Positions 5,615-54,466 of a stretch of 64,000 nt of DNA are shown piece after piece. A program made the position numbers and the translations under genes. The first letter of the stretch is position 1. Each line of letters begins with the position of its first letter. This stretch comes from Aestuariivirga sp. (GTDB lineage: Bacteria; Pseudomonadota; Alphaproteobacteria; Rhizobiales; Aestuariivirgaceae). Under the pieces are notes generated by a model that had not been told where the DNA came from, did not search any database, and saw only the letters and a list, made by a program, of their open reading frames with translations. The stretch spans positions 3,810 to 67,809 of the forward strand of contig NZ_JBIIDX010000001.1 in the NCBI RefSeq assembly GCF_044238155.1, in the 5' to 3' direction.

Positions 5615-5648
5615 GGGCTCCGTCAAGCATTGACGGAGCCCTTTTCTC
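5615..5648 (+). terminator. rho-independent terminator/attenuator after the first binding-protein gene
   Basis: Perfect 11-bp stem, gggctccgtca (5615-5625) with tgacggagccc (5631-5641). The loop is 5 nt and is followed by ttttctc. Confidence 0.6.
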
Positions 5649-5793
5649 GTGTGAACCTTGGCGCGGATGGTCAAAACGTCTGCCATCGCCACGAGTTTAT
5701 TTCGAGGGTGGACCAGAGCAGACGACGGCGGGTTCAACCGCTCCAGCCACGGGATGAAAACTGCCGGCCCAGCCGGCATCAGGGAGAGAACCA

Positions 5794-7401: not shown

Positions 7402-7421
7402 TCTGACCCGGCACGAAACCG

Positions 7422-7470
7422 CGCCGGGGGCTCTTGTGGCGCGTCAGCGCACCGGCCCCCGGCGTTTTCC
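7422..7470 (+). terminator. GC-rich hairpin plus T-run after the second binding-protein gene
   Basis: cgccggggg (7422-7430) pairs with cccccggcg (7456-7464) and is followed by ttttcc. The 25-nt interior has a further gcgc/gcgc pairing. Confidence 0.45.
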
Positions 7471-7538
7471 TGTAGAAACACGCTGTGGTTTGCCGCCAGG
7501 GACGCGGCAGGCCCGCAAAGAGGCCAACGGGGGGACGC

Positions 7539-37807: not shown

Positions 37808-38914
37808 TTGCAATCAAACGGGAATCCCGGTCAACAGGTGAGCCCGCCACGGGTCTGGGTGGTGCAGAGCCCGCATTCCGGCGACAACACCCAGCTCCGG
37901 GCCCTGGCAGCGGGCCTCGGCTGGCCCTCCGAGGTCAAGCAGCTCGTCTACCGCAATTGGGAACCGCTGGCCCGGCTGCTGAGCCTTGCCAGTCTCGCTG
38001 GCGTCGACCGTGCCCGTTCGAGCCCGTTGGCCCCGCCCTGGCCCGATCTGATCATCTGCTCCGGCCGCGCCGCCGAGGCGGTGGCCTTCTGGATCCGCAG
38101 GCAGAAGCCCTCTTGCCGCATTGTCTTCCTCGGAACTCCCTGGGCCGCCCATCGTCACTTCGACCTGATCATCACCACGCCGCAGTACCGGCTGCCGCAG
38201 GCCCGGAACATTCTGCACAATCTCTTGCCGCTGCATGATGCAACGCCAAACCTGCTGGCAGATGCGGCGGCGCGCTGGCAAGGGCGGCTGGCGCATCTGC
38301 CACTGCCGCTCACGGCTGTTCTGGTCGGTGGGCGCAGCGGCCCCTATCTGATGACGCCGGAGGCAGCCGCCCGGCTCGGGCGTGCCGCAAGCGACATCGC
38401 TGCAGCCGAGGGTGGCGCTCTCCTTGTCACCACCAGCGCCCGCACCAGCGAGGCGGCGGCAGCCGCACTCTTGGCGGCGATCGGGGTGCCCTGCCACCTG
38501 CACCGCTGGACCAAGGCGGCGGACGAAAACCCGTTTCATGCCTTCCTGGGGCTTGCCAGCCGCATCATCGTTACGGCCGATTCAGTATCGATGATGGCCG
38601 AGGCCGTCAGCACCGGGAAGCCGGTGCTGCTGTTTGACATTGAACATGGGCGTTATGCCATGCGCGCCGAAGATAGCGCCCCGCAGCCCGCGCCAATTGG
38701 CTGGCGTGGCCGCAGCCTTGATACCACGCTGTTCCGGCTGCTCATCAACCATGCGCCGGCGCGTTTCTCGCGCGACCTGCGCATCGTGCACCGGCAGCTG
38801 GTGGCCGCCGGCCATGCCCAGTGGATTGGCGCGCCGCAGCAGGCCCCGGTGCCCCCGCCCGGCGATGAGCTGGCCCGCGCGGTGGCTCGCATCCGCAGCC
38901 TTTTTGGCCTATGA
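37808..38914 (+). CDS. ELM1 / DUF1022 family protein, copy 2
   Basis: 368 aa from TTG at 37808 (GTG at 37838 is also possible). VWVVQSPHSGDNTQLRALAAGLGWPSEVKQL...PWPDLIICSG...RIVFLG aligns with copies 1 and 3. Confidence 0.7.
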   Translation: MQSNGNPGQQVSPPRVWVVQSPHSGDNTQLRALAAGLGWPSEVKQLVYRNWEPLARLLSLASLAGVDRARSSPLAPPWPDLIICSGRAAEAVAFWIRRQKPSCRIVFLGTPWAAHRHFDLIITTPQYRLPQARNILHNLLPLHDATPNLLADAAARWQGRLAHLPLPLTAVLVGGRSGPYLMTPEAAARLGRAASDIAAAEGGALLVTTSARTSEAAAAALLAAIGVPCHLHRWTKAADENPFHAFLGLASRIIVTADSVSMMAEAVSTGKPVLLFDIEHGRYAMRAEDSAPQPAPIGWRGRSLDTTLFRLLINHAPARFSRDLRIVHRQLVAAGHAQWIGAPQQAPVPPPGDELARAVARIRSLFGL

Positions 38915-38929: not shown

Positions 38930-40312
38930 TTGCCCGGGAATGCTGACCTGATGCCTGCCCATAGCCACAAGAGCCTTGCCGACCGGTGGGTCAGCCTCAG
39001 GGGGGCGGCCTGGAAGGCGCTGCTGCGCCAGGCAGAGGCCTTGGCCTATCTGGTCGCGGGCCTGCCGGTGGCGCTCAGGCACGCGTTCGCGCCACGGCCC
39101 ACGGCTGATCTTCCGTCTGCTGACTATCTTCACCGCTACTATGCCTGGAATTACTGGCGGTTGCCGTGGGGACCGGTCAAGGCCGTGCTGGCAGCGCTCG
39201 TCTGGCCGCTGGCGCTGGTCGTCACGCTGTGGCTGTTTACCAGGCGCAATGGCGCGGCGATTGCCGCACGCACTGGCATCGGCGTTCCAGCCCAGCTGCT
39301 GGGTCAGGTGGCGATGGCGCTGCGCTTCGGCATTGCGCCCTTCTGGTATTACATGTTCGAGCTCTATCTGCCCGAGCGCAGGCAGCGGGCCGGGCTTTAC
39401 CTCACCGCTCACGAGACGATTGGCCCGGCTTACGGGGCGCTGCAGCCGCCCCCGGGGGCCGATCACCTGGATGACAAGATCTGGTTTGCCGAACACTGCC
39501 ACCGGCAGGGCGTGCGGGCGGTGCCTGTGCTGATGCATTTCAGCCGTGGGCTGCCGCAGCAGCTTGCCGGCGGTGTTGATGAGCTGCCGCCCAGCGACCT
39601 GTTCGTGAAGCCGCGCTCAGGTTCCGGCGGCCACCGCATGGAACGCTGGGACTGCATCGGTGACGGGCGCTACCGCAACGCCCATGGCGAGGTACTCGAC
39701 CGTGCGGCCTTGATGGATAAGCTCAAGCTCCAGTCACTCAAGGATGACTTTCTGGTGCAGCCGCGGCTGGCCAACGATCCCGTGCTTGATGACATCGCCA
39801 ATGGCGCGCTGGCCACCGTGCGCCTGCTTACGTGCCGCAACGAGCAGGGCCAGCCGGAGGCCGTCAAGGCCGCCTTCCGCATGGCGATCGGCAATCAGGT
39901 GGTCGACAATTTCCACCAGGGCGGGCTGGCCACTGCGGTGGATCTTGGCACCGGCCAGATCGGCATCGCTTCCGATCTCGGCATCAGTCCAGGCGTTGGC
40001 TGGCGTGACACCCACCCGGTCAGCGGTGCGCGGTTTGCGGGCCGCACGCTGCCGCACTGGCGGCAAGTGGTGGCGCTGGGCATCCGGGCGCATCAGGCCT
40101 TCCCTGATCGCGTGGTCGTGGGCTGGGATATTGCCATGCTCGCCGACGGCGCAATGGTCATCGAAGGCAACGGCAGGCCCGACCTCGACATCCACCAGCG
40201 CGCTGAGCAAGGGCCTGCCGGTGAAAGCCGGATTGCGGACCTGTTGCGCTTCAATGTGGCAGGGGTGGGGCGCGGTTCCCATACTGAATGTCCGACTACA
40301 GCAATGCGTTGA
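38930..40312 (+). CDS. sugar-transfer-associated ATP-grasp family ligase with an N-terminal membrane segment
   Basis: 460 aa. Hydrophobic segments VKAVLAALVWPLALVVTLWLF and LLGQVAMALRFGIAPFWYYMF. ATP-grasp body LFVKPRSGSGG...FLVQPRL...NFHQGGLA...GWDIAMLADGAMVIEGN. Confidence 0.7.
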   Translation: MPGNADLMPAHSHKSLADRWVSLRGAAWKALLRQAEALAYLVAGLPVALRHAFAPRPTADLPSADYLHRYYAWNYWRLPWGPVKAVLAALVWPLALVVTLWLFTRRNGAAIAARTGIGVPAQLLGQVAMALRFGIAPFWYYMFELYLPERRQRAGLYLTAHETIGPAYGALQPPPGADHLDDKIWFAEHCHRQGVRAVPVLMHFSRGLPQQLAGGVDELPPSDLFVKPRSGSGGHRMERWDCIGDGRYRNAHGEVLDRAALMDKLKLQSLKDDFLVQPRLANDPVLDDIANGALATVRLLTCRNEQGQPEAVKAAFRMAIGNQVVDNFHQGGLATAVDLGTGQIGIASDLGISPGVGWRDTHPVSGARFAGRTLPHWRQVVALGIRAHQAFPDRVVVGWDIAMLADGAMVIEGNGRPDLDIHQRAEQGPAGESRIADLLRFNVAGVGRGSHTECPTTAMR

Positions 40313-40372: not shown

Positions 40373-41284
40373 ATGCAGCTCCCCAACATTTATGACCTCC
40401 GCACCGGTGTGCGCCGTCTCATTTCTGCCAGTTCCGCAGTGCTTCCCCGCGAGACTGGCATCCGGGCGGAGCGGTGGTTTCGCGGTTATGAGGATTCCAA
40501 GAAACTCGCTAGTGCCGATGGAGTTGTTGTGTCGTTTGGCAAGAGCGGACGGACTTGGCTGAGGGTTTTGATCTGGCGTTACTTCGCGAAACGCAATGGT
40601 TACGCAGGCGAAGGCATCAGCGAGTTTGATGAGTTCCGCCACCGTAACCCCAGTGTACCTGTCCTGTTTTTTACGCATGATAACTATCTCAAGGACTATG
40701 CCGGACATGACCACAAGTCCCGGCTCTACGGGAAGGCCCCGGTTGTCCTGCTCGTGCGCGACCCGCGAGATACCGCGGTGTCACAATATTTCCAGTGGAA
40801 GCATCGCATCGCGCCGCGCAAGAAAGTGATCAACAATTATCCCCTCAATGATGACGGGCTTTACAGTTTTGTGTCTGGTGATCAATCCGGCATTCCCAAG
40901 ATTATCGATTTTATGAACGCCTGGGCGAAGGAGATTGGCGACATGCCGCACCTTCTCGTTGTTAAGTACGAGGATTTGCGGGCAGATACCCAGGGTGAAC
41001 TGCGCCGGGTACTGGAGTTTTTCGGCCAGCATCCAACCAGCGAGGAACTGAAAGACGCTGTCACCTTTGCATCGGTTGATAACATGCGCCGGATGGAGCT
41101 CGAAAACGCCCGAAATGCTAGCGCCCATCGCAGCCTCAGGCCCGCCGACGCGAACGATCCCTCCAGTTTCAAGGTCCGCCGCGCCAAGGTCGGCGGGTGG
41201 CGTGACTATGTGAGTGCGGATGAGGCAGCAACTCTTGATGCCATGGTCAGAGGACGGCTCTCGGCAGTATTCGGTTATCAGTGA
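40373..41284 (+). CDS. PAPS-dependent sulfotransferase domain protein
   Basis: 303 aa. 5'-PSB-like FGKSGRTWL and 3'-PB-like LVRDPRDTAVSQY. It is the first gene of the lower-GC block. Confidence 0.7.
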   Translation: MQLPNIYDLRTGVRRLISASSAVLPRETGIRAERWFRGYEDSKKLASADGVVVSFGKSGRTWLRVLIWRYFAKRNGYAGEGISEFDEFRHRNPSVPVLFFTHDNYLKDYAGHDHKSRLYGKAPVVLLVRDPRDTAVSQYFQWKHRIAPRKKVINNYPLNDDGLYSFVSGDQSGIPKIIDFMNAWAKEIGDMPHLLVVKYEDLRADTQGELRRVLEFFGQHPTSEELKDAVTFASVDNMRRMELENARNASAHRSLRPADANDPSSFKVRRAKVGGWRDYVSADEAATLDAMVRGRLSAVFGYQ

Positions 41285-41329
41285 GTTTCTTTTGGCTTCA
41301 AAAAGCTTGGTATTGCTTTCCTCACCTAC

Positions 41330-42385
41330 CTAACGCTTGGCTATCTTGTCCCAGCCAACTGGTGTGTTTGCGGCTGTTGCACAGGTCATGACTGATCCGA
41401 TCACCTCGTCAATGTGCTTCGGCGCCAGTCCATAACCAGGACGCACGCTCCGTACCGCGGATCTTGTTACGGTTTCGCCGGCTTTCATATCTTTCACGAA
41501 ATACAGGGAGCGGCGGAACATGACATTGCCGACCTCGCTCGATTTCCGCCCATAGTCAATTTGGCCTAAAGCATTCCAGGCAGTGCGCGAACCCCTGCAG
41601 AGTTGCGCGAATTCCGCCGGTTCCAGTGAAAAGCTGTCATCTGGGCCTCCACCAGTTCGATCCAGCGTCATGTGCTTCTCGATTATGGTGGCGCCCAGCG
41701 CCACACTGGCTATGGCTGTCGTATTGTCGATCGTATGATCGGAAAGTCCGATCGGCACGCCAAAACGCCTTGCCATGTCGGGAATGGTGGCAAGATTATA
41801 GTCCTCTGGCGGTGCCGGATAGCCTGAAACGCAGTGCAGCAGGGCCAGTTCTTCACACCCGCCTTCCCGCGCCGCAGCCACGGCTTCTTTGATCTCTTCG
41901 AGATCAGCCATTCCAGTTGAGATAATCATCGGCTTGCGTTTCGAGGCGACATAGCGGATGAGGTCAAGGTCGACCGCCTCGAACGACGCAATCTTATAAG
42001 CAGGTGCGCGAAGCTCTTCCAAGAAGTCTACCGCCGTATGGTCAAACGGCGTGGAGAACAACGTAATGCCGCGTTTTCTCGCATGTGCGAATAGTGCCTC
42101 GTGCCATTCCCAGGGCGTATGGGCCCACTCATAGAGCTCGTAGAGTGTGCGCCCCGCCCATAGGCCATCCTGGATCTGGAAATCCGGTAGGTTGGAACGC
42201 AGGGTTATCGTATCGGGCCGGTAGGTTTGGATCTTCACAGCATCGGCCCCGGCCGCCTGGGCGGCGTCGATAATACTGAGGGCTGCTTCGAGGCGTCCGT
42301 TGTGATTGGCGGAGAGTTCGCTGATCACATAAGGAGGGGCCTCGGCCGAGATCTCTCTTCCGTTGATGATGATTTTTGGTGTCAT
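41330..42385 (-). CDS. pseI: pseudaminic acid synthase (NeuB family)
   Basis: 351 aa. PYVISELSANHNGRLEAALSIIDAAQAAGADAVKIQTY and a C-terminal SAF/antifreeze-like domain. Confidence 0.85.
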   Translation of the reverse strand: MTPKIIINGREISAEAPPYVISELSANHNGRLEAALSIIDAAQAAGADAVKIQTYRPDTITLRSNLPDFQIQDGLWAGRTLYELYEWAHTPWEWHEALFAHARKRGITLFSTPFDHTAVDFLEELRAPAYKIASFEAVDLDLIRYVASKRKPMIISTGMADLEEIKEAVAAAREGGCEELALLHCVSGYPAPPEDYNLATIPDMARRFGVPIGLSDHTIDNTTAIASVALGATIIEKHMTLDRTGGGPDDSFSLEPAEFAQLCRGSRTAWNALGQIDYGRKSSEVGNVMFRRSLYFVKDMKAGETVTRSAVRSVRPGYGLAPKHIDEVIGSVMTCATAANTPVGWDKIAKR

Positions 42386-42452
42386 GTCGTTCTGGGTCTC
42401 GCAACCGCGTTTAAGGTGATGGACTTGAGCAATGGACTGGACAGCAACGGTT

Positions 42453-43094
42453 TCATTTCAATTTCTTGAGGCGGATTTCGTAGACGTGCCCGTGCAAGTG
42501 GAAGAACGCGGGATAGCGCTCTGGGTCGCAAACGCGTAGTATGTCGAACTGTTCGGCAATCGATTTGCCCGGATCGATCTCGCTGTCTGCAGGTATGCGC
42601 CTTCGGTAATAACTTGCTGTGACCTCAGGTTGCGGCACTGGAATTCTTCCCTGCCGAATCATGCCTATCACCTCATCCATCAACTTCAGTTCGTTGGCGA
42701 AGAGAGCGGCGTTGATCTCTTCGTGGAGTGCATGTGGGGCTACCTCGAAAGTTCTCTTTGACCAAACATCACCACTGTCGACTTTCTCTGCCGCGTCGAT
42801 TGCGGAAACGGTCAGGGTGTGAGCGCCTTCGATGATAGCCCAGACGTGTGGGCTCCACCCTCGGCCTCTCGGCAGGTCACTTGCGTGCAGGACGATGACA
42901 TGCCCGTAGAGGGCCCTCCGTTCGGCCGGGATTATCTCGGAGCAGGAAATGAGGAACAGCACATCGCCACCGCCAAGCTTCTCCACCTCATGCAGTAGGG
43001 TTGTTTCATCGCCGGGTGTCTGCTGGTCACGCCAGGTCTCGAGCCAGGGAATGACCGGGTGATGGCGGCTCGAACAGAGAAGGTCGATCTTCAT
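42453..43094 (-). CDS. formyltransferase-domain protein occupying the slot where the acetyltransferase PseH would be expected
   Basis: 213 aa. IVLHASDLPRGRGWSP corresponds to the N-x-H-x-SLLPxxRG formyltransferase motif, but the Asn position is Val. VDSGDVW corresponds to the catalytic Asp region. Confidence 0.65.
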   Translation of the reverse strand: MKIDLLCSSRHHPVIPWLETWRDQQTPGDETTLLHEVEKLGGGDVLFLISCSEIIPAERRALYGHVIVLHASDLPRGRGWSPHVWAIIEGAHTLTVSAIDAAEKVDSGDVWSKRTFEVAPHALHEEINAALFANELKLMDEVIGMIRQGRIPVPQPEVTASYYRRRIPADSEIDPGKSIAEQFDILRVCDPERYPAFFHLHGHVYEIRLKKLK

Positions 43095-44188
43095 GGTGCC
43101 GTTCCAGCGTTCATGACTGCGACAACGCGCTCCGTTCCGCCACCGTCGCAGATCCTAGCCGAGTGCGCAGAAAGCGCGGCAAGGCAGTCGGGTAACATGG
43201 CCTGTTCCAGTACTCGACGTAGGCGGTGGGGAAAATCATCGGCCAGCAAGGAACCAGGGTATAGGGCGGCGCCCGCGGCGATCATGTTGCGGGCAATACC
43301 CGCCTGGTTGGCGGCAGTTTCCGTGATGATGGTGGGCAGTCCAAGGCAACAGCGCTCCCAGGTTGTCGTACCGGCAGCCCCAATCGCTAGGTCCGCCTCA
43401 GCCATGAGGCTAGGCATGTCATTGACATTGACGGCGACCTCGGCCGACCATGGCAGTTCGGCCGCCAGCTTCCTGACGCGGGGGAGGGCAGGTGAATTAT
43501 TTCCCATGATGATGATCAGGCTAGCGTCCGGCGGCAAGTTTGCGGTTTTCATGGCTAGCAGTATGCGCGAGGTGGCATCGGCAACGTCAACCCCCCCCAT
43601 GGAAATGAGCAGGCGCCGGGGTTTCCGCTCCCCACGGCCTGCAAGAGACGCCTCGCGCAGAGCCGCAAAACCCGGCCTCAACAGCGCATAGTGCGGACCG
43701 ACAATCCGCCGGGCCGTGGAGGGAAGCAGAGGGTCGTAATCGGACGCTCTCCGGCCCAGATTTTGGTCCAGCAGCAAGTCAGCAAGATGCGGCCTGTCGG
43801 CAAGATCGTCAATCACCAGCAGTTTCGTACCTCTGGGGCGGGCTACATCTTCCCAGCGCTCATCGAAGGCATAATGGTCCAATACTAGCCAATCTGGTGG
43901 CTCGGCCGAGAGTGCAGCGCGGGTGCTCGCAGAATCCCTCTGCCAGTTCTCTCCTGCCCAGGCGGCATGGGCAGGCGGTGCTTCAGGTGTGGGTCCCTGA
44001 GGTGCCGGCAGGAGGGTTACTGAAAAGCCTTTCGATCTGATGTGCGCTGCCAGGTTGCCAGGAAGTTCGCGCGTGATGAAATGGCAAATTGTACCCGCTT
44101 TGCGCAGTGCGCTTGCAAGCGTCAGGCACCGCATGACGTGCCCTGTGCCCATCTCGATTGAGGCATCCACACGAAAAGCTACTCGCAT
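43091..44188 (-). CDS. pseG: UDP-2,4-diacetamido-2,4,6-trideoxy-beta-L-altropyranose hydrolase
   Basis: ORF 43091..44266 with a preferred ATG at 44188 (MRVAFRVDASIEMGTGHVMRCLTLASALRKAG), the typical PseG N-terminus. ATGA overlap with the downstream gene. Confidence 0.8.
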   Translation of the reverse strand: MRVAFRVDASIEMGTGHVMRCLTLASALRKAGTICHFITRELPGNLAAHIRSKGFSVTLLPAPQGPTPEAPPAHAAWAGENWQRDSASTRAALSAEPPDWLVLDHYAFDERWEDVARPRGTKLLVIDDLADRPHLADLLLDQNLGRRASDYDPLLPSTARRIVGPHYALLRPGFAALREASLAGRGERKPRRLLISMGGVDVADATSRILLAMKTANLPPDASLIIIMGNNSPALPRVRKLAAELPWSAEVAVNVNDMPSLMAEADLAIGAAGTTTWERCCLGLPTIITETAANQAGIARNMIAAGAALYPGSLLADDFPHRLRRVLEQAMLPDCLAALSAHSARICDGGGTERVVAVMNAGTAP

Positions 44189-44190
44189 GG

Positions 44191-46230
44191 CTAGTTGATC
44201 CGCTTGAAACCGGCGTGGCACACTGGCCCTTTGAGAAGCGATGTTACGTCGAGCCCGTCTTCGCACTTGGCAATGAGGGCAAACACCTTGTCAATCGCCT
44301 CCGCATATCGCTCAATCACCTCGGGGGTATGTGCAAGACAGGCATAGGTGCCGGTTGCGGCCAGGAAGCCAAGGGCCAGCATTTCTTGAGTGATAAGAGT
44401 CTTGTACGCCAGCGCATTCGCGCCGGGAAAGCTGAAAGTGGCGAGGGCGGGAAGGCCACTGTGATCAATGGCGAGCTTGTGACGGTCTGCGACCTGCTGC
44501 CAACACCCACGGATGGTTCGGCCAATTTCCGTGATGCGCTCCCACGAACGCTCGCGCGCCATGACGTCAAGCGTCTTGAGAGCTGCGGCGGGCCCGATGC
44601 GTTCAGTCCAGAAGGTCGAGGAGATGAAGGTAGTCTGTGCGGCCTCCATGACTTCGCGGCGACCGACCACGGCATTTATGGCATAGCCATTGCCGAGTGT
44701 CTTGCCAAACACAACTATGTCAGGCTCGATGCCATATTTCAGATACAGTCCACCAAATGTCTCACGAAAACCTGAGGTACATTCATCGAAGATCAGCACG
44801 ACGCCATGGCGCGTTGCCAGTTCGCGTACCTTCTGCAGAAAGTTAGCGTGAGGTTCGGCATTGCGCACGACTTCCATCTTGATCACGCCGATACCACCGC
44901 CGGACAGAAGGCCTTCCAGCGCAGCAATATCGTTGTAGTTGAAGGGGTGTACCACGCCGCGAAGCGCCTTGGGTACGCCTGCTGGGTTCAGTCCGGGCAG
45001 CAGGTGTCCTGCGAGGCTGTCGTCGCTGCCGAGATTGGCCGATAGGTACCAGTCATGCCAACCGTGGTAACCACACACCGCCACGCCATCCCGGCCCGAG
45101 GCAGCACGCGCAATGCGTATCGCAACGGCATTTGCCTCACCGCCAGAACGGGTAAACCTCACCATCCCCGCGAAGGGCGCGATCTCGATCAATCTTTCGG
45201 CAAGCCATACTTCCTCTGGACAATTGAGGGTCGTCATGTTGCCGCTGTCGATCACCGAGTGCACTGCGGCATCAACCTCCGGATGCCCGTAACCCAGTGT
45301 GTTGGTGCCAATCCCCATCAGGCTCATGTCGATGAGAGCATGTCCGTCCATGTCCCAGACGGTACATCCCTTGGCGCGGCTGAAATAGGCAGGCCATTGT
45401 TCTGGCGCGAACATTTCTGCTCTCTTGGACAGCAACATGCTTCCACCAGGAATAATCTGTTTGGCTCGTTTCCATAACTTTTGCCCGCTGCCCATGCTGG
45501 CTCCCTCATTACGGGAAATGCCCCGATTCAACAGAAACTCCTCAGGCTTGGCCTGCCAAGCGAAAAGAGCTTGCTGCCAGGTGAAATCGTCACGTCCGCC
45601 AAGGTTGCAGACAAGAGCGTCCACAGCATTCAGATCGGCTGCCTCATCCACAGTCCAACGAATATAGGATAGATCTTCCAGATTGCTTAGGCAGGCGCGG
45701 CGGAACGATCCCCTGCGGAGATAGGGCGTGACGTGCTCTCGATCAAAAGCGGAAGAGGCCTCGTTTGCTGCGCGCATCAGTGCGGCAGCCGTGAATACCT
45801 CAATATCCAATCCGTCAGGATAGCTCGCGGGATCGATGTTGCTGGCATAATCAACGTCTTCTTGTTGACGCAGCGCGATCACCGCATCGATCAGTGCTGG
45901 ATCAGTCAGTGGGCAATCCGCTGTGATCCGCACTACAAAGTCGGCTGCGTGGGAAGCGGCAGCGCGTGCGAAACGATCCAGTACGTCTCGCTCACTTCCG
46001 CGCACGACAGCAATCTTGCGTGCTGCCAAATGTGCAGCTAGCACGTCGTCCGATGGCTGGTCGGTGGTAGCGACGACCACCTTGTCCAGCATTCGCGCCC
46101 GCAGTGTCCGGTTGATTACCCAGTCGATGACTGGTCTTCCTGCGAGAAGCCGCATTACTTTTCCTGGAAGACGGCTGGATCCCATGCGGGCTTGGATGAT
46201 GGCGATAGTAGTCATGACTTTGGCCAGCAT
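44191..46230 (-). CDS. fusion of an SpsF/COG1861-type cytidylyltransferase with a class III (GSA-aminomutase-like) aminotransferase
   Basis: 679 aa. N-terminus IAIIQARMGSSRLPGKVM. The C-terminal half has GYGHPEV...RFTRSGGEANAVAIRIAR...and the PLP-lysine region VVFGKTLGNG. Confidence 0.75.
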   Translation of the reverse strand: MLAKVMTTIAIIQARMGSSRLPGKVMRLLAGRPVIDWVINRTLRARMLDKVVVATTDQPSDDVLAAHLAARKIAVVRGSERDVLDRFARAAASHAADFVVRITADCPLTDPALIDAVIALRQQEDVDYASNIDPASYPDGLDIEVFTAAALMRAANEASSAFDREHVTPYLRRGSFRRACLSNLEDLSYIRWTVDEAADLNAVDALVCNLGGRDDFTWQQALFAWQAKPEEFLLNRGISRNEGASMGSGQKLWKRAKQIIPGGSMLLSKRAEMFAPEQWPAYFSRAKGCTVWDMDGHALIDMSLMGIGTNTLGYGHPEVDAAVHSVIDSGNMTTLNCPEEVWLAERLIEIAPFAGMVRFTRSGGEANAVAIRIARAASGRDGVAVCGYHGWHDWYLSANLGSDDSLAGHLLPGLNPAGVPKALRGVVHPFNYNDIAALEGLLSGGGIGVIKMEVVRNAEPHANFLQKVRELATRHGVVLIFDECTSGFRETFGGLYLKYGIEPDIVVFGKTLGNGYAINAVVGRREVMEAAQTTFISSTFWTERIGPAAALKTLDVMARERSWERITEIGRTIRGCWQQVADRHKLAIDHSGLPALATFSFPGANALAYKTLITQEMLALGFLAATGTYACLAHTPEVIERYAEAIDKVFALIAKCEDGLDVTSLLKGPVCHAGFKRIN

Positions 46231-47039
46231 CTCGGGTCAAGAAGTCGCGTATCGGTCGTGGTGAGATGATTTGGCAGTGGCGGAAGTTTAGGGACATCTA
46301 GAATTTCGGCAAGCTGCACGGCGTTATCGACACCAATCACAACCCGCTCGACAGGTCGGGCCATCGCGAGCGCGAGTGCGGCTTGCGCGAGTGTTGTCTC
46401 CTGAGCAGCCACCCAAGCACGCCAGTCAGACAGTAGGCCACCCCAGCGGCTGGCCCACCGCGGTGTTTCGTTAAGTGTGAGTAATCCCTGCAGATATACC
46501 GAGCGTGCATGCACCCGCACGCCGTCGGAGGCCAGTTGGAGAAGCATGTCATTCCAGCGGGCGTCGAGCGCGGAGAGTGGTATCTGCACAATGTCTGGCG
46601 TCATGCGCCCCAACAGCGCCCGGAGCTCATCCGGTTCATAAACCGAAAAACCGATAGCCCGCGTGAGACCATTCCCTTTGATGCTGGCCAGCGCTGAGGC
46701 AAGACGAGGTTCTTCATGAATTTGTGCCGGAGCATGGAGGAGGATTGCCTCAAAACATTCGATGCCAAGGCGCGCAGCGCTCGCATTTATGCGACATGAC
46801 AGTTCCTCAATGTGTTCAAGTCTTCCGACTTTGCCCACCACGTTGAAACCTGAAATGCCAACCTGTCCCAACACGGACTCAGCAGAGCCATAGGCCTCCG
46901 CGGTATCAATCGTATTGATACTTGCGGCTCTGGCTAGCGACAATATACGCGCAACTTCCGAACGGGGCACTTGGCCGGAGCCAGCAACTCCATAATCCAT
47001 GCCGAACTGCACCGTGCCTAAGGCCAGTCGCTCAGTCAT
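46212..47039 (-). CDS. aldo/keto reductase
   Basis: ORF 46212..47141 with a preferred ATG at 47039 (MTERLALGTVQFGMDYG...INTIDTAEAYGSAESVLG). It overlaps both neighbouring genes. Confidence 0.75.
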   Translation of the reverse strand: MTERLALGTVQFGMDYGVAGSGQVPRSEVARILSLARAASINTIDTAEAYGSAESVLGQVGISGFNVVGKVGRLEHIEELSCRINASAARLGIECFEAILLHAPAQIHEEPRLASALASIKGNGLTRAIGFSVYEPDELRALLGRMTPDIVQIPLSALDARWNDMLLQLASDGVRVHARSVYLQGLLTLNETPRWASRWGGLLSDWRAWVAAQETTLAQAALALAMARPVERVVIGVDNAVQLAEILDVPKLPPLPNHLTTTDTRLLDPRCWPKS

Positions 47040-47673
47040 GACCCGACAGCTTGCGCAAAAGGGATACAGACACCCACTCGTGGGCGTCATCGGTCGGCTT
47101 GTCCGACAAATGATGATAGACTTCATGCGATAGGCAAACATAGCTGGGATGCCAGTCGAACAGTCGACGATAGTCCATTTTGAACGACCAAAGGCCTTCC
47201 TTGTGGTGGTAGGGCCTGGTCACTGGACTGATTGAGAAAAAATCGTGGATCACCAGCCAGCCCGGAGTAGCTAAGACGCGGTCAGCTTCTGCGGCGATAC
47301 GGAACAGATCGTCTCGGTCGCACAGGTAGAGACAGAAACCAAATATGACCACATCAAATTCACCAGCTGCAAACGGGAGGGCGTCGGCTGTGCCCACTTG
47401 GGCATCGACCCCCAACTTCCGTGCATGTGATACTGCGGCAACAGACGGATCAATGCCGCTCACCTTTGCAGTACTAGCAGCAGCGATTGCAGCGCTGCGT
47501 TGTCCGGCGCCGCACCCAACCTCCAGGACTCGCCTAATCTCCGAGATGGTTGAAATATGGCGCAGAGTGGCCACGATGCGATCGTCATCTGAAACACCTC
47601 GCGAAACAGCTGCGCTGTTTCGAAGAAACCACGCATCGCCTTCGCCACGAAGAAAAGCGTCTCGCTGGCGCAT
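47032..47673 (-). CDS. class I SAM-dependent methyltransferase, resembling pseudaminic-acid-biosynthesis-associated methylases
   Basis: 213 aa. SAM motif VLEVGCGAGQRS. The N-terminus FLRGEGDAWFLRN is typical of the Pse-associated methylase family as I recall it. Confidence 0.7.
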   Translation of the reverse strand: MRQRDAFLRGEGDAWFLRNSAAVSRGVSDDDRIVATLRHISTISEIRRVLEVGCGAGQRSAAIAAASTAKVSGIDPSVAAVSHARKLGVDAQVGTADALPFAAGEFDVVIFGFCLYLCDRDDLFRIAAEADRVLATPGWLVIHDFFSISPVTRPYHHKEGLWSFKMDYRRLFDWHPSYVCLSHEVYHHLSDKPTDDAHEWVSVSLLRKLSGHD

Positions 47674-47676
47674 GTG

Positions 47677-48819
47677 TCAGCCTGTCTCGCGGGCCAGAAC
47701 GGCAAGCACTCGTTCCCGCTGGTTTTCGGTGAGTGTAGCAAATATCGGAAGGCTTATAGCGCGACCATAGTAGCTCTCAGCAGATTGGAAGTTATCCGAA
47801 TTAAATCCCATGCGCTGATACCATGGGTGCCGATAGACGGGTATGTAGTGGAGATTGACCCCAATACCATGTTTGCGCAGTCCCTGAAAAATCGTGCGGT
47901 GTTGATCAGGATCAACCTGGATCACATAAAGATGCCAACTTGACAGAGTGTCTGGATGCTGATGCGGTCGTATAACATTCAGATCGACCAGCGCTGCATC
48001 ATAGGCTGCCGCATGGGCGCGGCGCGCTGATAGATAATGATCGAGCTGCATCATCTGGCTGGTGCCTAATGCAGCAGCAATGTCGGTAAGCCTATAATTC
48101 CATCCCAATTCAATTTGTTCATAATACCAAGAGCCATCATAGCGTGACATTTTATCGCGATCGCGGGTAATGCCATGACTCCTCAACATGCGCATGCGCT
48201 CGGCGAGAGCAGCATCTTGGGTGGTCGCAATTCCTCCTTCGCCTGTGGTTACGATCTTTACAGGATGAAAGCTGAATATGCAGATATCTGACCATCTGCA
48301 GTCGCCAACCGGTTTGCCGTGATAGCTGGCGCCAATCGCATGACTGGCATCCTCTATCACGCAAATTCCATATTTCTTCGCCAAGACACCGATGCGACTC
48401 ATTTCACAAGATTGGCCGGCGAAATGAACTGGAACGATGATTTTTGGCAGCCGGCCTTCACGTGCAGCCACCAAAAGTTTTTCCTCTAGGGCATCAGGAC
48501 TCATGCAGTAGGTTAATGGGTCAATGTCGACGAAATCGACTGATGCGCCACAATAAACCGCACAATTGGCAGAGGCAACAAAAGTGATAGGCGAAGTCCA
48601 TAGCTGATCGCCCGGGCCAAGCCCCAGTGCAAGGCACGCGATGTGCAGTGCCGAAGTTGCCGAATTCACAGCGATGGCATGGGCAGCCCCAACCCGGTCC
48701 GCAACAGCCTGCTCGAATGCTGGCACCGCAGGTCCCTGGGTGAGGAAGTCCGAACGCAAGACCTTGACCACCGCATCGATGTCCGCTTCTGTGATAGTTT
48801 GGCGTCCATAGGGAATCAT
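47677..48819 (-). CDS. pseC: UDP-4-amino-4,6-dideoxy-N-acetyl-beta-L-altrosamine transaminase
   Basis: 380 aa. MIPYGRQTITEADIDAVVKVLRSDFLTQGP, a DegT/DnrJ/EryC1 family member. Confidence 0.85.
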   Translation of the reverse strand: MIPYGRQTITEADIDAVVKVLRSDFLTQGPAVPAFEQAVADRVGAAHAIAVNSATSALHIACLALGLGPGDQLWTSPITFVASANCAVYCGASVDFVDIDPLTYCMSPDALEEKLLVAAREGRLPKIIVPVHFAGQSCEMSRIGVLAKKYGICVIEDASHAIGASYHGKPVGDCRWSDICIFSFHPVKIVTTGEGGIATTQDAALAERMRMLRSHGITRDRDKMSRYDGSWYYEQIELGWNYRLTDIAAALGTSQMMQLDHYLSARRAHAAAYDAALVDLNVIRPHQHPDTLSSWHLYVIQVDPDQHRTIFQGLRKHGIGVNLHYIPVYRHPWYQRMGFNSDNFQSAESYYGRAISLPIFATLTENQRERVLAVLARETG

Positions 48820-49817
48820 TATATGGCCCCGATTTTGGACCGGTTCTGATCAATCCACCTCGCAAGAGAGTCCGGGGTCATCCAGTCCGGGTTGCCATCA
48901 CTCGTGTAGCTGAAAGCCTCAGCAACTGCCTTTCCATTCTTGATCCGCTTGCTGTCTGCAGACCAATTATTGATTGCTGGCAATACTTTATAATAGGAAT
49001 CATATTCATATGTATGTGACGCGTCTTCGGCTCCGATCATCTGCTCGTGAAGCTTCTCTCCTGGGCGAATTCCCACGATCTCGTGCTTGGCATCGGGTGC
49101 TATGACCCGCGCGATGTCTGTTACTTTCATTGATGGTATCTTCTTCACATAGACTTCGCCGCCAACCATGTCTTCGAAAGCGTGCCAGACAAGCTCAACG
49201 CCTTGTTCGAGGCTGATCATGAAACGGGTCATGCGTGGGTCTGTAATGGGAAGTATACCCTTGTCTCTGACTGACATAAAGAAAGGAATGACCGAGCCGC
49301 GCGAGCCCATCACATTACCGTATCGGACGACGCTGAACCGGGTCTTGTGCTCGCCAGAATAGGAGTTACCAGCTACAAACAGCTTGTCGGAAGCCAGCTT
49401 GGATGCGCCGTAAAGATTGATCGGTGCAGAAGCCTTGTCGGTTGACAAGGCTACCACCGCCCTCACTCCTTTGTCGATTGCAGCGTCAATCACATTCATG
49501 GCGCCAGTTACATTGGTCTTGATGCACTCAAACGGATTATACTCAGCTGTTGGCACGATCTTGGTAGCGGCAGCATGAACCACATAGTCCACTCCATCGA
49601 AGGCGCGATAAAGCCGTTCACGATCCCGAACATCACCAATGAAGAAGCGCACTCTTGGATCCGAGCCATATGTTTTGGCCATTTCCCACTGCTTCATTTC
49701 ATCTCTCGAAAAGACAATGATCTTTTTGGGATTGAAACGCATCAGGGTCATCGGCAAGAAAGCATTGCCGAAAGAGCCTGTACCGCCGGTTATCAATATG
49801 ATGGAGTTGGATAGCAT
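48819..49817 (-). CDS. pseB: UDP-N-acetylglucosamine 4,6-dehydratase (inverting)
   Basis: 332 aa. ILITGGTGSFGNAF...FSRDEMKQ...GDVRD. Its size and motifs match PseB/FlaA1. Confidence 0.9.
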   Translation of the reverse strand: MLSNSIILITGGTGSFGNAFLPMTLMRFNPKKIIVFSRDEMKQWEMAKTYGSDPRVRFFIGDVRDRERLYRAFDGVDYVVHAAATKIVPTAEYNPFECIKTNVTGAMNVIDAAIDKGVRAVVALSTDKASAPINLYGASKLASDKLFVAGNSYSGEHKTRFSVVRYGNVMGSRGSVIPFFMSVRDKGILPITDPRMTRFMISLEQGVELVWHAFEDMVGGEVYVKKIPSMKVTDIARVIAPDAKHEIVGIRPGEKLHEQMIGAEDASHTYEYDSYYKVLPAINNWSADSKRIKNGKAVAEAFSYTSDGNPDWMTPDSLARWIDQNRSKIGAI

Positions 49818-50083
49818 AGGTCCACTCTTGTATGTTTTCCAGTTGCTCCGGCAATCCGAAGCACGTGCCAGTACCAGCGGTAGCGGCAGAAGACCAAAAC
49901 GCGATACCCCTATAGTTCCTTACCGCTGGAGGCAAGCCATAGAACCAGCCTAGTCCTCAGCCTGGTTGATACGAAGAGTGTAAAAATATGAATAATCTCA
50001 CATTATCAACATCTTAAGAGCACTTCACCACCAAAGTCCAAAGTGGGGCTCGTGCAAATGGCACCAGACGCACCATTTCTCGG

Positions 50084-50818
50084 TCAATTCCCATCTCGTC
50101 GGTTTTTGCAATAAATCAGCAGGTGAGGCGTAGTCTTGCTCTTGGCAAGAAAAGGAAAGAGCAAATATAATTTGGACAGTAGATTTGCGATGGTTCTGTG
50201 CCGTTTTTCCGACGCCCTGCCGTATTCCCGTATTTCAACTTCCACAAAACTGTCTGAAGCGATCTTCTCTATAGCGCCAAAATAATCCCTTGCTCTTGGC
50301 CCCACATTTACAAGAAGAGATCCTCCGCGGTTTGTAGCATGAACGCACTTTTCATAGGCAATCACCGCATTTCCTTCATCAAATCGAGTGTTTATCCCGA
50401 TTGTCTCAAGACAGACCACAAAGTCGCCTTTTATGTCTGGTGGAATGTCTTCGATCTTGCAGACGATGCCTCTTCCCCCAGTCGTGGCTTGGCCCGTCTC
50501 AATCCGTTCTTCATCAGCATCAAGGCCAAAATAGTTCTCTGTCTTGAACATCGGCTTGTTTTTCATGTAACCACAAGCAATATCCAGCCCAGATTTGAAT
50601 CCCTGTGATTCCCTCATCAATTCTTCGACCCACATCCAAAGAAGCTGTTTGCTTGCTCGCCTGCTTTGTCTCATCATGATGCTATCAAAGGCAAAAGCCC
50701 GCCCTCTATTGGAATCAAAAAATTCATGGTTACGAATAGGATGATTACCGGGCTCATAATCTGTGGTCAACAGCAGCACGAAGGTATAGCGATGCGGAAC
50801 AGCATAAAGGTCTTGCAA
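50084..50818 (-). CDS. probable class I SAM methyltransferase-like protein
   Basis: 244 aa from TTG at 50818 (an internal ATG at MMRQSRR is possible). LDIACGY and GLDADEE resemble motifs I and post-I. It is the lowest-GC gene in the window. Confidence 0.45.
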   Translation of the reverse strand: MQDLYAVPHRYTFVLLLTTDYEPGNHPIRNHEFFDSNRGRAFAFDSIMMRQSRRASKQLLWMWVEELMRESQGFKSGLDIACGYMKNKPMFKTENYFGLDADEERIETGQATTGGRGIVCKIEDIPPDIKGDFVVCLETIGINTRFDEGNAVIAYEKCVHATNRGGSLLVNVGPRARDYFGAIEKIASDSFVEVEIREYGRASEKRHRTIANLLSKLYLLFPFLAKSKTTPHLLIYCKNRRDGN

Positions 50819-50972
50819 ATGTTGAATTGAGGCAGATCAAGGGTTGCTAGAAAAATGTTGAACCGCCCTCATGCGTAAGATACAGAGCGACTCGAGGTTG
50901 CGCGGTAGCTCTCGTCAGTTTGTCCAATCGTAGTCAAGGCTGAGCAAGCCCGACAGCTCATGAGGTGCTGAA

Positions 50973-52328
50973 TTGGCGCGCATTTACATCAACATAGAAA
51001 TACAGAAGCGTGAGTTCGACGGAAGATTTTTGCTGGCCCTGATAGCAGCAGAACGTGGACATACCGTGCTGTTGGGTAACTTGAAGCCATTACTCCGCAA
51101 AGGTCTTCTGGCTCCCGGCATAATACTTGATAAGAGCCTGACCCCGCGGCCGGAAAAGCTTCTCATGATGAAGAATTCAAAAGAGCGCGGTTTTCTCGTA
51201 ACGAGTATTGACGAGGAAAGCGGTATTCTGCAGGGCGATTATTCGGCTTTTGCCAAAAAGCGCTACTCGGAGGAGTCCTTGCGGCTTGCGGATGCCGTAT
51301 TCTTCTGGGGACCCCATGACTTCGGTCACATGAACGAAGCCTTTCCAGCATTCCGTGACCGCTTTCATGTCACTGGCAATCCAAGAGTTGACATTTGGCG
51401 CTCTGAACTCACCCAATATTTTAGCAAGGCGAATCCCAATCCCCGGCCCTATGTGTTGCTGCCGTCTAACTTCAGCAGCATTTTCAGCCGCGATGATCTT
51501 GCAGTATCAATCAAGCGGCTCTGCCGAATGGGTTACATTGAGGAAAATGCGGTAGGGGATGCTTGGGAGGCGCGCACCTACCGCTACTGGCAGGAGGGCG
51601 TTGAGCTTGGTTGGGAGTTCATAACCGCGTTCAGACGTCTGGCTCGTCAATTTCCTGCGCTGGACTTCATCGTACGTCCTCATCCGACGGAATCTCCCGA
51701 TCTATGGAGGCAGCTTCTGCGCCCGCGGGAAAATCTCTCTATAAAGTCGGAGGGAAGCATTTCGCCGTGGATCCGACATGCGCGCGTTGTTGTAAATCAC
51801 GGATGTACAAGTGCTCTGGAAACCGCTCTTTCCGGTGTACCTCTGGTCAGTTACGAGCCTGCTATCAACCATAATTCTGATCTAGTTTTCCCGAAGAGAC
51901 TGGGGCTTTGTGCGCGCACCTACGATGAGCTTGAAACAGCCGTCAGTGAAGTCGTTTGTTCGAAACACAGGAATACAACGTCGTCTGACCTGGCTGTATT
52001 GAGTACAAGGCTGGCTGCGATCACGGGAAGGTTTGCGGCTGAGAGAATTGTAGATATCTGGGATGCGCTCGACAATCCGTTGCTCCGGAAAGGCGATCTT
52101 TGGTCTGATGAGCCAGGGTCGCGTCTTAGGGTAATGCCCTACCGTGTCGATGCTTACAAACTCTTGTCGATGGCTGGCTTCGGTCCCCAGAACTGGACTT
52201 CCTGGAAGTTCCCGCCATTTGATCAACGTGAAGTGCTTGAAGCAAAGTCCCTATTTGTCCAGACGCTTCGGCGTTTCGAAAAAGTGCCTGTCAGCCTGCT
52301 TGGGCCGCGTATAATCAGGGTCGGATGA
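50973..52328 (+). CDS. 'surface carbohydrate biosynthesis protein'-type protein (uncharacterised; possible GT-B-like transferase)
   Basis: 451 aa. The N-terminus IYINIEIQKREFDGRFLLALIAAERGHTVLLG matches my recollection of that family. The function is not established. Confidence 0.5.
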   Translation: MARIYINIEIQKREFDGRFLLALIAAERGHTVLLGNLKPLLRKGLLAPGIILDKSLTPRPEKLLMMKNSKERGFLVTSIDEESGILQGDYSAFAKKRYSEESLRLADAVFFWGPHDFGHMNEAFPAFRDRFHVTGNPRVDIWRSELTQYFSKANPNPRPYVLLPSNFSSIFSRDDLAVSIKRLCRMGYIEENAVGDAWEARTYRYWQEGVELGWEFITAFRRLARQFPALDFIVRPHPTESPDLWRQLLRPRENLSIKSEGSISPWIRHARVVVNHGCTSALETALSGVPLVSYEPAINHNSDLVFPKRLGLCARTYDELETAVSEVVCSKHRNTTSSDLAVLSTRLAAITGRFAAERIVDIWDALDNPLLRKGDLWSDEPGSRLRVMPYRVDAYKLLSMAGFGPQNWTSWKFPPFDQREVLEAKSLFVQTLRRFEKVPVSLLGPRIIRVG

Positions 52329-52363
52329 CGTCTTGTGTCTTGAGTTGGTTAAGTGAATTGCTG

Positions 52364-53278
52364 TTACACTGCAAAAAGTGGCTGTTCGTCCAGGGTTGGT
52401 GTCCGAAGCATCAAATCCAATGCATCGTGTCGAACATGGTTGAGTTTCATTTCGTGCCGGATCAAGCCATCGGTTACGATGCCCTTATCGTAACACTCTC
52501 GCAGCAATCCGAAGAATAGTCGCTCTTGTTTAGGGTCAGGATGCGGTTTGTAGCTTCCCATCAAACCGTATTCGCCGAAAAATTTACGACGCAGGCGATG
52601 ATAAACATTCTTGGGTGTAAATGCGCCCTTGGTTTCGGGTGGTCGGAAGTCTACCGGCAGTCCTGACTTCCACGGCTGGGTCAGGCGCTTGGTGTTGTGA
52701 AGCATTCGTGTTTGCTGGGAAAGCTGATCAAAGTCGTTCCAGACCGTTTCGAGCAGCCCAATCGTCTCTTGTGGCTCGAGTTGCAGCGTGATCCACTTCA
52801 TATAGTCGCGTCGAAATTCAAACATTTCCTCGAAATTTGTACGCACATTCCAGTGTGCAAGCTTGGTGTTATCGAGCAGCATAACGCTTGATGCCCAGAC
52901 ATCCTGTTTGCTGCCGGCACGGTGGCGTGCCATGATTGCAACTCCCCTCATGTCACGCGCTATGAGTTCGTTGACGTCGGAAATACAGAAGACATCTGGG
53001 TCAACGACAAGTGAGCGTCCCTGATAATTCATGAGCTCAGGTGGCGCGAAGCGCAGCACAGTAAAGGACTGAAGGTCTTCATTCAGCCACTCTCGCTTTA
53101 GCCCGTCGCGCAGATAAGCTTGGCCTTCGCGGTTCTTCATCCAGGCATAGTTGGTGGTCTCGATCAGGCGTACGTCAAAAGCAGACGGATCAGCAGAAAA
53201 TCTTTCAAATGAGTATTTTGAGACGAGCGCGCCGATGCTTTGCTTCTCATTGGTGTGAATGAAGATGGTGGGCTTCAT
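52364..53278 (-). CDS. GT8-like GT-A nucleotide-sugar transferase, copy 2
   Basis: 304 aa. It aligns along its full length with 36776..37702 (for example KQSIGALVS, REGQAYLR, DLQSFT, YQGRSLVVDPDVF, SSVMLLD). Confidence 0.5.
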   Translation of the reverse strand: MKPTIFIHTNEKQSIGALVSKYSFERFSADPSAFDVRLIETTNYAWMKNREGQAYLRDGLKREWLNEDLQSFTVLRFAPPELMNYQGRSLVVDPDVFCISDVNELIARDMRGVAIMARHRAGSKQDVWASSVMLLDNTKLAHWNVRTNFEEMFEFRRDYMKWITLQLEPQETIGLLETVWNDFDQLSQQTRMLHNTKRLTQPWKSGLPVDFRPPETKGAFTPKNVYHRLRRKFFGEYGLMGSYKPHPDPKQERLFFGLLRECYDKGIVTDGLIRHEMKLNHVRHDALDLMLRTPTLDEQPLFAV

Positions 53279-53352
53279 GGCGTTAATCCTTCCAAATGTC
53301 TTGCGGATGACGTCCAGAGGTCATACACTTCGCGATAGCAAAACTTATCCAG

Positions 53353-54360: not shown

Positions 54361-54466
54361 TGTTTACCTCCTCTTGATCCGCTAACTCATTAGAACGGTT
54401 TGAAGTGATTTTCGACAGGAAATCAGAGAATGACGCATCTTGCGGAAGGATCGCTGGAAGCTCGTC

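Follow-up and report, generated by a model that had tools for sequence, protein, structure and literature searches.

We analysed a 64,000-nucleotide stretch of Aestuariivirga sp. DNA (NCBI RefSeq assembly GCF_044238155.1, contig NZ_JBIIDX010000001.1, positions 3,810 to 67,809 of the forward strand; hereafter the window), in which eight co-directional open reading frames (ORFs), overlapping or abutting in the ORF listing, fill positions 41330-49817 on the minus strand. These eight genes are a genuine operon for a decorated pseudaminic acid (Pse) surface sugar and, judged by family membership and gene position, two of the standard Pse enzymes, PseH and PseF, are replaced here by unrelated ones, namely a short formyltransferase-fold (FT-like) protein and an SpsF-type cytidylyltransferase (CT) domain, the latter fused to a class III aminotransferase (AT3) domain. 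The window is a further instance of an already catalogued Pse operon type, whose layout is common and recurs in hundreds of public bacterial sequences; its particulars are the CT-AT3 fusion, a methyltransferase occupying a variable slot, and a setting among polysaccharide instead of flagellar genes. On balance we favour the view that the operon makes a CMP-activated, decorated Pse-type nonulosonic acid for a surface polysaccharide.

Genes were identified by curated NCBIfam equivalog cut-offs complemented by Pfam scans of the ORFs, and the eight genes, their order and their coordinates were found as an earlier note on this DNA, made from the sequence alone, had given them. The core consists of pseB, encoding the inverting UDP-GlcNAc 4,6-dehydratase (48819-49817; TIGR03589, 532.6 bits against a cut-off of 407.75; Polysacc_synt_2, 325 bits), pseC, encoding the UDP-4-amino-4,6-dideoxy-L-AltNAc transaminase (47677-48819; TIGR03588, 543.4 bits against 423.5), pseG, encoding a UDP-sugar hydrolase of 365 aa (43091-44188; TIGR03590, 299.4 bits against 153.55), and pseI, encoding pseudaminic acid synthase (41330-42385; TIGR03586, 493.1 bits against 340.25). 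Since all four are canonical equivalogs above cut-off, the backbone of the sugar is, on family assignment, Pse-type. Between pseC and pseG lie a class I S-adenosylmethionine (SAM)-dependent methyltransferase (47032-47673; Methyltransf_25/11, 58 bits), an aldo/keto reductase (AKR) of 275 aa (46212-47039; Aldo_ket_red PF00248, 91 bits) and the 679-aa CT-AT3 fusion (44191-46230; CTP_transf_3 at residues 9-173 and Aminotran_3 at residues 280-584), composed of the CT domain (approximately residues 1-240; 45511-46230) and the glutamate-1-semialdehyde (GSA)-aminomutase-like, pyridoxal phosphate (PLP)-dependent AT3 domain (44191-45510; Aminotran_3, 137.6 bits). The FT-like protein of 213 aa is encoded between pseG and pseI (42453-43094; Formyl_trans_N PF00551, 39.3 bits against a cut-off of 26.1, the match being restricted to profile positions 72-181, the second half). 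On the pseC side, pseB and pseC overlap by 1 nt, a gap of 3 nt separates pseC from the methyltransferase gene, and the latter overlaps the AKR gene by 8 nt; on the pseI side, AKR and fusion genes overlap by 19 nt, fusion and pseG are 2 nt apart, pseG and the FT-like gene overlap by 4 nt, and 67 nt separate the FT-like gene from pseI. Identical DNA is present on a JGI metagenome contig with agreeing gene calls, from which the 275-aa AKR call derives (a start is possible as far upstream as 47141), and the 365-aa PseG call was taken from locus L001, L numbers denoting the compared loci.

With the canonical Campylobacter/Helicobacter pathway to CMP-Pse5Ac7Ac (PseB, C, H, G, I and F), the operon shares the PseB, C, G and I equivalogs and the overall logic, leading from UDP-GlcNAc through a 4-amino sugar, N-acylation, hydrolysis and condensation with phosphoenolpyruvate to CMP activation. 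It differs in having the FT-fold protein where that pathway has the GNAT PseH and the SpsF-type CT domain where it has the NeuA/KdsB-like PseF, and in three extra enzymes, the AKR, the class III aminotransferase and the methyltransferase.

The closest catalogued relatives are found in Aeromonas, whose polar-flagellin glycosylation islands were classified by Forn-Cuni et al. 2021, with 96 strains in Group I (PMC7874193). Group I islands contain pseB, pseC, an "alpha/keto reductase", pseF, a class III aminotransferase, pseG and pseI, with nothing (IA), PseH (IB) or a "glucuronic acid dehydrogenase" (IC) between pseG and pseI, and some of the subgroups additionally carry a methyltransferase (PMC7874193). 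A. bivalvium CECT 7113, which belongs to subgroup IC and corresponds to L045, matches the window in gene content and order, its cytidylyltransferase going under the name pseF in that catalogue, and its "glucuronic acid dehydrogenase" is in fact an FT-like protein, 49% identical to that of the window, so the gene set of the window is already catalogued. In contrast to Aeromonas IC, the window derives from an alphaproteobacterium, has CT and AT3 fused and a methyltransferase gene added between pseC and the AKR gene, and lies in a capsule- or lipopolysaccharide-like island with a GT4 gene, ELM1-like genes, sulfotransferases and an ABC exporter instead of a flagellar locus with maf; no flagellin, maf or other flagellar gene was found among the scanned window ORFs, and the neighbours are polysaccharide genes. 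Moreover, the FT-like protein has about 2000 database relatives of 212-222 aa, a one-genome-per-species scan returned 238 stretches encoding such a relative, of which 80 loci were kept, and the CT-AT3 fusion occurs in more than 590 metagenome stretches. By these numbers and the Aeromonas catalogue, the arrangement is not an unusual one.

The replacement of PseH is indicated first of all by position. In nearly all of the 80 genome loci the FT-like gene lies between pseG and pseI. In most loci where the stretch from pseC to pseG is readable, it consists of one gene of about 230 aa, which is PseF in L002 (312 bits on TIGR03584), on which grounds we take pseB-pseC-pseF-pseG-FTlike-pseI, without a GNAT, to be the dominant operon. 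Operons retrieved via the fusion can instead carry, between pseG and pseI, a GNAT passing TIGR03585 (129.2 and 115.7 bits against 93.1), and across the loci with AKR and fusion this position is filled by a GNAT in 14-18 cases, by an FT-like gene in 14 and by both in three (L104, L105 and L114, with a PseH-type GNAT and a distant FT-like gene). This positional replacement of certified PseH is the main argument that the FT-like protein probably performs the PseH step, N-acylating UDP-4-amino-4,6-dideoxy-L-AltNAc, and it agrees with the earlier proposal that the protein occupies the PseH slot. The related claim that the window contains no GNAT PseH is upheld insofar as Pfam scans of the window ORFs, from which two runs of evident peptide ABC-transport genes (3986-11039) were left out, found no GNAT domain (PseH, TIGR03585) and no second CTP_transf_3, an absence that is not absolute because five or six island ORFs had no Pfam match.

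For PseF, the picture is similar. A certified PseF probe matches the window just at the N-terminus of the fusion, and weakly (71 aa, 38% identity, E = 5e-7), TIGR03584 (PseF) is not among the 25 best-scoring NCBIfam families for the fusion, and stand-alone homologues of the CT domain reach 21-31 bits on TIGR03584 against a cut-off of 205.7. The CT domain itself belongs to CTP_transf_3 (PF02348, 112.7 bits against a cut-off of 22.6) and matches the "cytidylyltransferase" of PDB 6OEW at 1.5e-28; its motifs ARxGSxRLPxK, TxDCPL and DGLDxE are invariant in 12 fusions from several phyla, the invariant residues including Q13, A14, R15, G17, S18, R20, K24, D105, P107, D139 and D142. PseF-type genes are lacking within 20 kb in loci with an SpsF-type CT, and vice versa. 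A TIGR03584-type PseF stands alongside the AKR and fusion genes in just one of 90 loci, and in no FT-type locus with an SpsF-type CT, suggesting that the CT domain is the likely CMP-activating enzyme. Furthermore, in L008 a 69-aa fragment that is 67% identical to PseF (3238-3444) directly follows pseC and is itself followed by a full-length formyltransferase, an AKR and a CT-AT3 fusion; the fragment appears to be the relic of a pseF displaced by these genes. Together, these observations make it probable that the SpsF-type CT of the fusion replaces PseF as CMP-nonulosonate synthetase. The statement that the window lacks PseF thus stands in that no NeuA-type or second cytidylyltransferase was found there, but the lack would be nominal, and with the CT as probable synthetase the extra functions number three rather than the four that had been counted. 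Non-PseF cytidylyltransferases have also been described in other nonulosonic acid pathways: a B. subtilis spsF mutant makes legionaminic acid and fails to display it on the spore (PMC7439481); in E. coli, a Pse pathway of six enzymes is completed by Caulobacter FlmC, a cytidylyltransferase described as having "no homology to PseF" (PMC7591256); and for a Vibrio Pse cluster it was proposed that an SpsF-like CT-AKR fusion takes over from NeuA (PMC7371886). SpsF and FlmC are stand-alone proteins, whereas the CT of the window is fused to an aminotransferase, and FlmC is likened to it here by function.

AKR and fusion belong together. The best database matches of the fusion, at 64-78% identity, include proteins of Massilia, Thauera, Polynucleobacter, Xanthomonadaceae and Chlorobium, its AT3 domain being 56-79% identical across phyla with an invariant PLP lysine (K510), and an AKR gene lies directly upstream in nearly all of the 90 loci, the catalytic tetrad of the AKR (D45, Y50, K70 and H102) being invariant in nine homologues. 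By gene order and residue conservation, AKR plus CT-AT3 is a conserved module. The AT3 domain scores 251.8 bits on PRK06209, under the cut-off of that family, and GSA aminomutases and sugar C-6' aminotransferases are among its relatives in the PDB. Variants of the module occur in FT-type operons, in which AKR, CT and AT3 are unfused (Aeromonas bivalvium, Motiliproteus), a CT-AKR fusion is accompanied by a short-chain dehydrogenase/reductase (SDR; Halomonas and others), or, in Psychrobacter, an AKR is found with a GFO/IDH/MocA protein, an SDR and a divergent PseF.

The slot between pseC and the AKR gene is variable. It holds a GNAT other than PseH in 10 loci (31.7 and 41.3 bits; closest to aminoglycoside/bleomycin N-acetyltransferases), a methyltransferase 46-52% identical to that of the window in seven loci besides the window (among them L087, L104, L105, L114, L123 and L131), a FemAB-family protein in four (TIGR04421, 308.9 bits) and a full-length formyltransferase in three, and it is empty in 25. 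On their family assignments, the slot enzymes are all amine-modifying, with the possible exception of the methyltransferase. Homologues of the methyltransferase are also found after pseI in L030 and between separate CT and AT3 genes in L163, a locus that had been considered as a triple CT-MT-AT3 fusion and proved to have three separate ORFs. The methyltransferase of the window scores 23.5 bits on TIGR03587, the "Pse-associated methylase" family, whose cut-off of 112.05 excludes it, and the label Pse-associated-type methylase given to it earlier gives way to that of a generic class I SAM methyltransferase.

With interchangeable amine-modifying enzymes in the slot, the simplest reading is that AKR and aminotransferase add a further amino group, which the slot enzyme decorates. 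In the pathway we propose, the FT-like protein would N-acylate UDP-4-amino-4,6-dideoxy-L-AltNAc at the amine that becomes N7 of Pse, the CT domain would activate the nonulosonate with CMP in place of PseF, and AKR and class III aminotransferase would act together on Pse or CMP-Pse, turning a secondary hydroxyl (C8 or C4) into a ketone and then into an amino group, as KdnB and KdnA do in making 8-amino-Kdo, a route to 8-amino-8-deoxy-Kdo in Shewanella reportedly described by Gattis et al. in 2013. The product would be a triamino nonulosonic acid like that of Tenacibaculum maritimum, which is an 8-amino structure; the slot enzyme would modify the new amine, here by N-methylation, and the finished CMP-sugar would be used by a neighbouring TIGR04396 glycosyltransferase. 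That AKR and AT3 create a third amine, which the slot enzyme then modifies, is a tentative part of this scheme and leans on analogy. The likeness to KdnB/KdnA is that, before CMP activation or close to it, an oxidoreductase and a PLP aminotransferase exchange a hydroxyl of a ulosonic acid for an amine, but the families are unrelated (an Fe-alcohol dehydrogenase and a DegT-type aminotransferase there, AKR and class III here), and the Kdo route starts from a primary alcohol, whereas Pse offers secondary alcohols only.

Some support comes from A. hydrophila AH-1, a subgroup IA strain (PMC7874193) that carries the module, and whose flagellin bears a single Pse-like sugar of 403 Da (PMC4691044). 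Compared with a calculated residue mass of 316 Da for Pse5Ac7Ac, this sugar is heavier by 87 Da, and its odd nominal mass points, by our inference, to an odd count of nitrogens, which would fit a third amine, e.g., in C16H25N3O9. The conserved module and the 403-Da sugar of a module-bearing strain are in line with the earlier suggestion that AKR, aminotransferase and methylase serve further modification. 8-amino-Kdo of Shewanella and a "pentadeoxynonulopyranosonic acid" of Flexibacter (Tenacibaculum) maritimus are both listed in PMC4052302, and the L. pneumophila Sg6/Sg12 O-antigen cluster combines PseG with a GSA-aminomutase-like gene, a cytidylyltransferase and an aryl-alcohol dehydrogenase-like oxidoreductase (PMC3694923). 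The paper on the Tenacibaculum maritimum O-antigen cluster describes no set of AKR, CT and class III aminotransferase. The A. baumannii genes aciA-D/elaA-C, considered as possible homologues of AKR, CT and AT3, were set aside, as AciB and AciE are SDRs in the K73 paper, which lends no support.

Several points weigh against this pathway. The 25 module loci without an extra modifier weaken the argument that a new amine needs one, the methyltransferase of the window could be an O-methyltransferase instead, and the 403-Da mass is of low resolution and fits other three-nitrogen compositions, e.g., one with an N-acetyl-seryl substituent. AKRs usually act as reductases of ketones or aldehydes rather than as oxidases. 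In eight module loci, Massilia L082 and Chlorobium L084 among them, a stand-alone SpsF-type CT exists beside the fused one, so the fused CT may differ in role there, and the rule that it always replaces PseF needs qualifying. The catalytic Asn of amine-formylating transferases is missing throughout the FT-like family, whose N-terminal subdomain is about 35-40 residues shorter than the canonical one, the profile match beginning at position 72. Finally, the absence of a GNAT PseH and of PseF covers the 64-kb window, and either could lie elsewhere in the genome.

The alternative that survives best, although we think it rather unlikely, is that AKR and AT3 add no third amine and instead either epimerise or deaminate the sugar, taking an amine through a ketone to an alcohol or oxidising and then reducing at C4 or C8, or build a non-acetyl N-acyl side chain (hydroxy- or amino-acyl) for N5 or N7. 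It would accommodate the reductase habit of AKRs and the module loci lacking an extra N-modifier, and it fits the SDR that takes the place of the aminotransferase beside the CT-AKR fusion in L006, L009, L018, L029 and L040 as well as the AKR, GFO/IDH/MocA and SDR set of Psychrobacter, both sets being typical of oxidation-reduction epimerisation; for the side-chain variant, Psychrobacter marincola makes Pse5Lac7Ac, a Pse with a 5-N-lactyl group (PMC7281560). However, GNAT, formyltransferase, FemAB protein and methyltransferase fill the variable slot as a new amine would require, the nominal mass of the AH-1 glycan is odd (PMC4691044), and the fusion to a CT argues that the nonulosonate itself is the substrate of the aminotransferase. 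A third amine, modified by the slot enzyme, stays our preferred, if tentative, reading.

The second alternative concerns the chemistry of the FT-like protein. Its AlphaFold model (pLDDT 93.6) superposes at TMq 0.68-0.80 on 1ZGH, the ArnA transformylase domain, Fmt, HypX, the hydrolase domain of 10-formyl-tetrahydrofolate dehydrogenase (FDH) and sugar N-formyltransferases (WbtJ), with values of 0.74-0.80 for 1ZGH, ArnA, Fmt, HypX and WbtJ. In 24 aligned relatives, the motif VxHASxLPxGRGWSP and Asp106 are invariant. Relative to ArnA, His104 and Asp140 are kept (His70 and Asp106 here), whereas the catalytic Asn102 is replaced by Val68, and across 93 homologues this position holds Val in 85, Ile in five, Cys in two and Leu in one, but never Asn; the fold and domain are thus those of the family, whereas the Asn-His-Asp triad is incomplete. 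Loss of the Asn is compatible with use of formyl-tetrahydrofolate, as the FDH hydrolase domain also has Ile there. A precedent at this step is PseJ of Anoxybacillus kamchatkensis (PDB 6CI2/6CI4/6EDK), an FT-fold enzyme of a Pse cluster credited with a route to Pse5Ac7Fo (Reimer 2018, as cited in PMC11040635), to which the role of the window protein can be likened as far as that citation goes. PseJ (6CI2) is a marginal sequence match (E = 5e-3, 19 bits), so the FT-like family, lacking the catalytic Asn and known here from sequence and model, forms a separate lineage. Formyl transfer from N10-formyl-tetrahydrofolate, giving a 7-N-formyl sugar, is the most likely chemistry, a judgement that we hold at about even confidence.

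That the protein is no such N-formyltransferase and transfers another acyl group, uses thiol or water as acceptor like HypX and FDH, or is a non-catalytic partner, so that the product is not 7-N-formylated, seems to us unlikely. This alternative draws on the replaced Asn in 93 of 93 homologues, on the remoteness of PseJ, on the closeness of the model to HypX and the FDH hydrolase domain, whose formyl acceptors are thiol or water, and on L104, L105 and L114, where a PseH-type GNAT accompanies the distant FT-like gene. Set against it are the exact replacement of certified PseH by the FT-like gene in otherwise homologous operons, the lack of any other acyltransferase in the dominant six-gene operon, the invariant His, Asp and SxLPxGRG folate-loop motif, and the natural occurrence of 7-N-formyl Pse (PMC11040635, PMC3210612). 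The suggestion of a Pse5Ac7Fo-type product in the earlier note keeps its footing in that such a sugar is known; formyl transfer itself is not established, given the remote PseJ and the absent Asn.

Two different Asn-less FT-like genes stand in tandem between pseG and pseI in L115 (11679-12822) and L151 (12333-13569), one with the motif NLVVHESxLP and the other 1ZGH-like (TIIFHMTDLPYGRGGSP in L151, CVCFHMTDVPYGRGGSP in L115), and such pairs suggest sub-functionalisation inside the family, as far as the motifs indicate. RkpP of NGR234 was considered as an FT-like homologue with a known Pse5Ac7Ac product and rejected, tblastn on PLSDB plasmids having returned nothing above 35% identity; PseH of NGR234 is the GNAT Rkp3_013 (PMC7591256). 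A Psychrobacter FT-like query returned P. immobilis, P. glacincola and many Pseudomonas, with no entry from P. marincola or from P. arcticus, which makes Pse5Ac7Ac (PMC7281560).

The remaining alternative, in which a standard pseH (GNAT) and pseF elsewhere in the genome make Pse5Ac7Ac and the four non-core genes are accessory tailoring functions or belong to another pathway, is improbable. The window does cover just 64 kb of a 70.9-kb contig and pse genes can be split between loci in Aeromonas and Caulobacter (PMC7874193, PMC7591256), but PseF and SpsF-type CT, and likewise GNAT and FT-like protein, are mutually exclusive across some 170 loci, which argues for replacement rather than addition, as does the pseF remnant of L008. 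The full combination, in which the AKR and CT-AT3 module and its partner form a route to triamino nonulosonic acids (8- or 4-amino-deoxy-Pse, N-methylated here) and the Asn-less FT-like family is a widespread PseH-replacing 7-N-formyl or 7-N-acyl class across Proteobacteria, is doubtful as a joint claim.

The operon lies within a low-GC3 (GC at third codon positions) island of about 40.4-56.9 kb (40373-56862), with a GC3 of 0.52-0.65, whereas the flanking genes have about 0.8, a difference that suggests horizontal acquisition of the pse island. The island also contains a sulfotransferase, an ATP-grasp protein, ELM1-like genes, a TIGR04396/BFO_1060-type glycosyltransferase and a fused ABC exporter, and a third ELM1-like copy and a GT4 gene lie just upstream. 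Outside the operon, the gene at 50973-52328 on the plus strand encodes a "surface carbohydrate biosynthesis protein" (TIGR04396, 246.7 bits against a cut-off of 125) with a BFO_1060-family domain. In Bradyrhizobium (L025, L026, L041, L043 and L069) and in a Hyphomicrobiaceae metagenome-assembled genome (MAG; L037), pseI is directly followed by a homologue of 27-28% identity, making the window gene's product a candidate nonulosonic acid transferase. GC3 is also reduced, to 0.65-0.70, at 24-29 kb, where a DUF6065 gene, a GT2-like gene and uncharacterised ORFs are located. The GAPDH encoded in the window shares 90% identity or more with one from Aestuariivirga sp. (order Hyphomicrobiales).

The three ELM1-like (PF06258) genes are located at 34583-35725 (-), 37808-38914 (+) and 53353-54234 (-), the first two being 33% identical. 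Two of them adjoin paralogous proteins of 308 aa (36776-37702, -) and 304 aa (52364-53278, -), which are 53% identical to each other and have no Pfam or NCBIfam match, and the ELM1-like gene with its neighbouring paralogue looks like a duplicated two-gene cassette in a polysaccharide island. Around the operon there are additionally a Sulfotransfer_1 gene (40373-41284, +), a second sulfotransferase-like ORF (54467-55138, -) with the N-terminal motif KTRKTASTS and no Pfam match, and a "sugar-transfer associated" ATP-grasp gene (38930-40312, +); by these gene families, the polysaccharide may be sulfated and amino-acylated. Among the compared loci, a Rhodocyclaceae MAG (L036, 4914-6664) carries between pseC and pseF a DarT (single-stranded DNA ADP-ribosyltransferase) and Macro-domain pair resembling the DarTG toxin-antitoxin system.

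In public databases, FT-like proteins are named "formyltransferase family protein", "methionyl-tRNA formyltransferase" or, wrongly, "UDP-glucuronic acid dehydrogenase", the latter two being mis-annotations, as is "glutamate-1-semialdehyde 2,1-aminomutase" for the CT-AT3 fusion. The window adds one more example of its type and no new principle, and its interest lies in the enzymology of the FT-like family and of the AKR/aminotransferase module. Pse sugars coat flagella, capsules and O-antigens and influence immune recognition, phage susceptibility and motility, and three of the eight enzymes of this operon, the Asn-less FT-like protein, the CT-AT3 fusion and its AKR partner, belong to very large families. 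Knowing their reactions would mend the widespread mis-annotations of FT-like and CT-AT3 proteins, would account for glycan masses such as that of the A. hydrophila AH-1 flagellin sugar, and would allow nonulosonic acid structures to be predicted from genomes.

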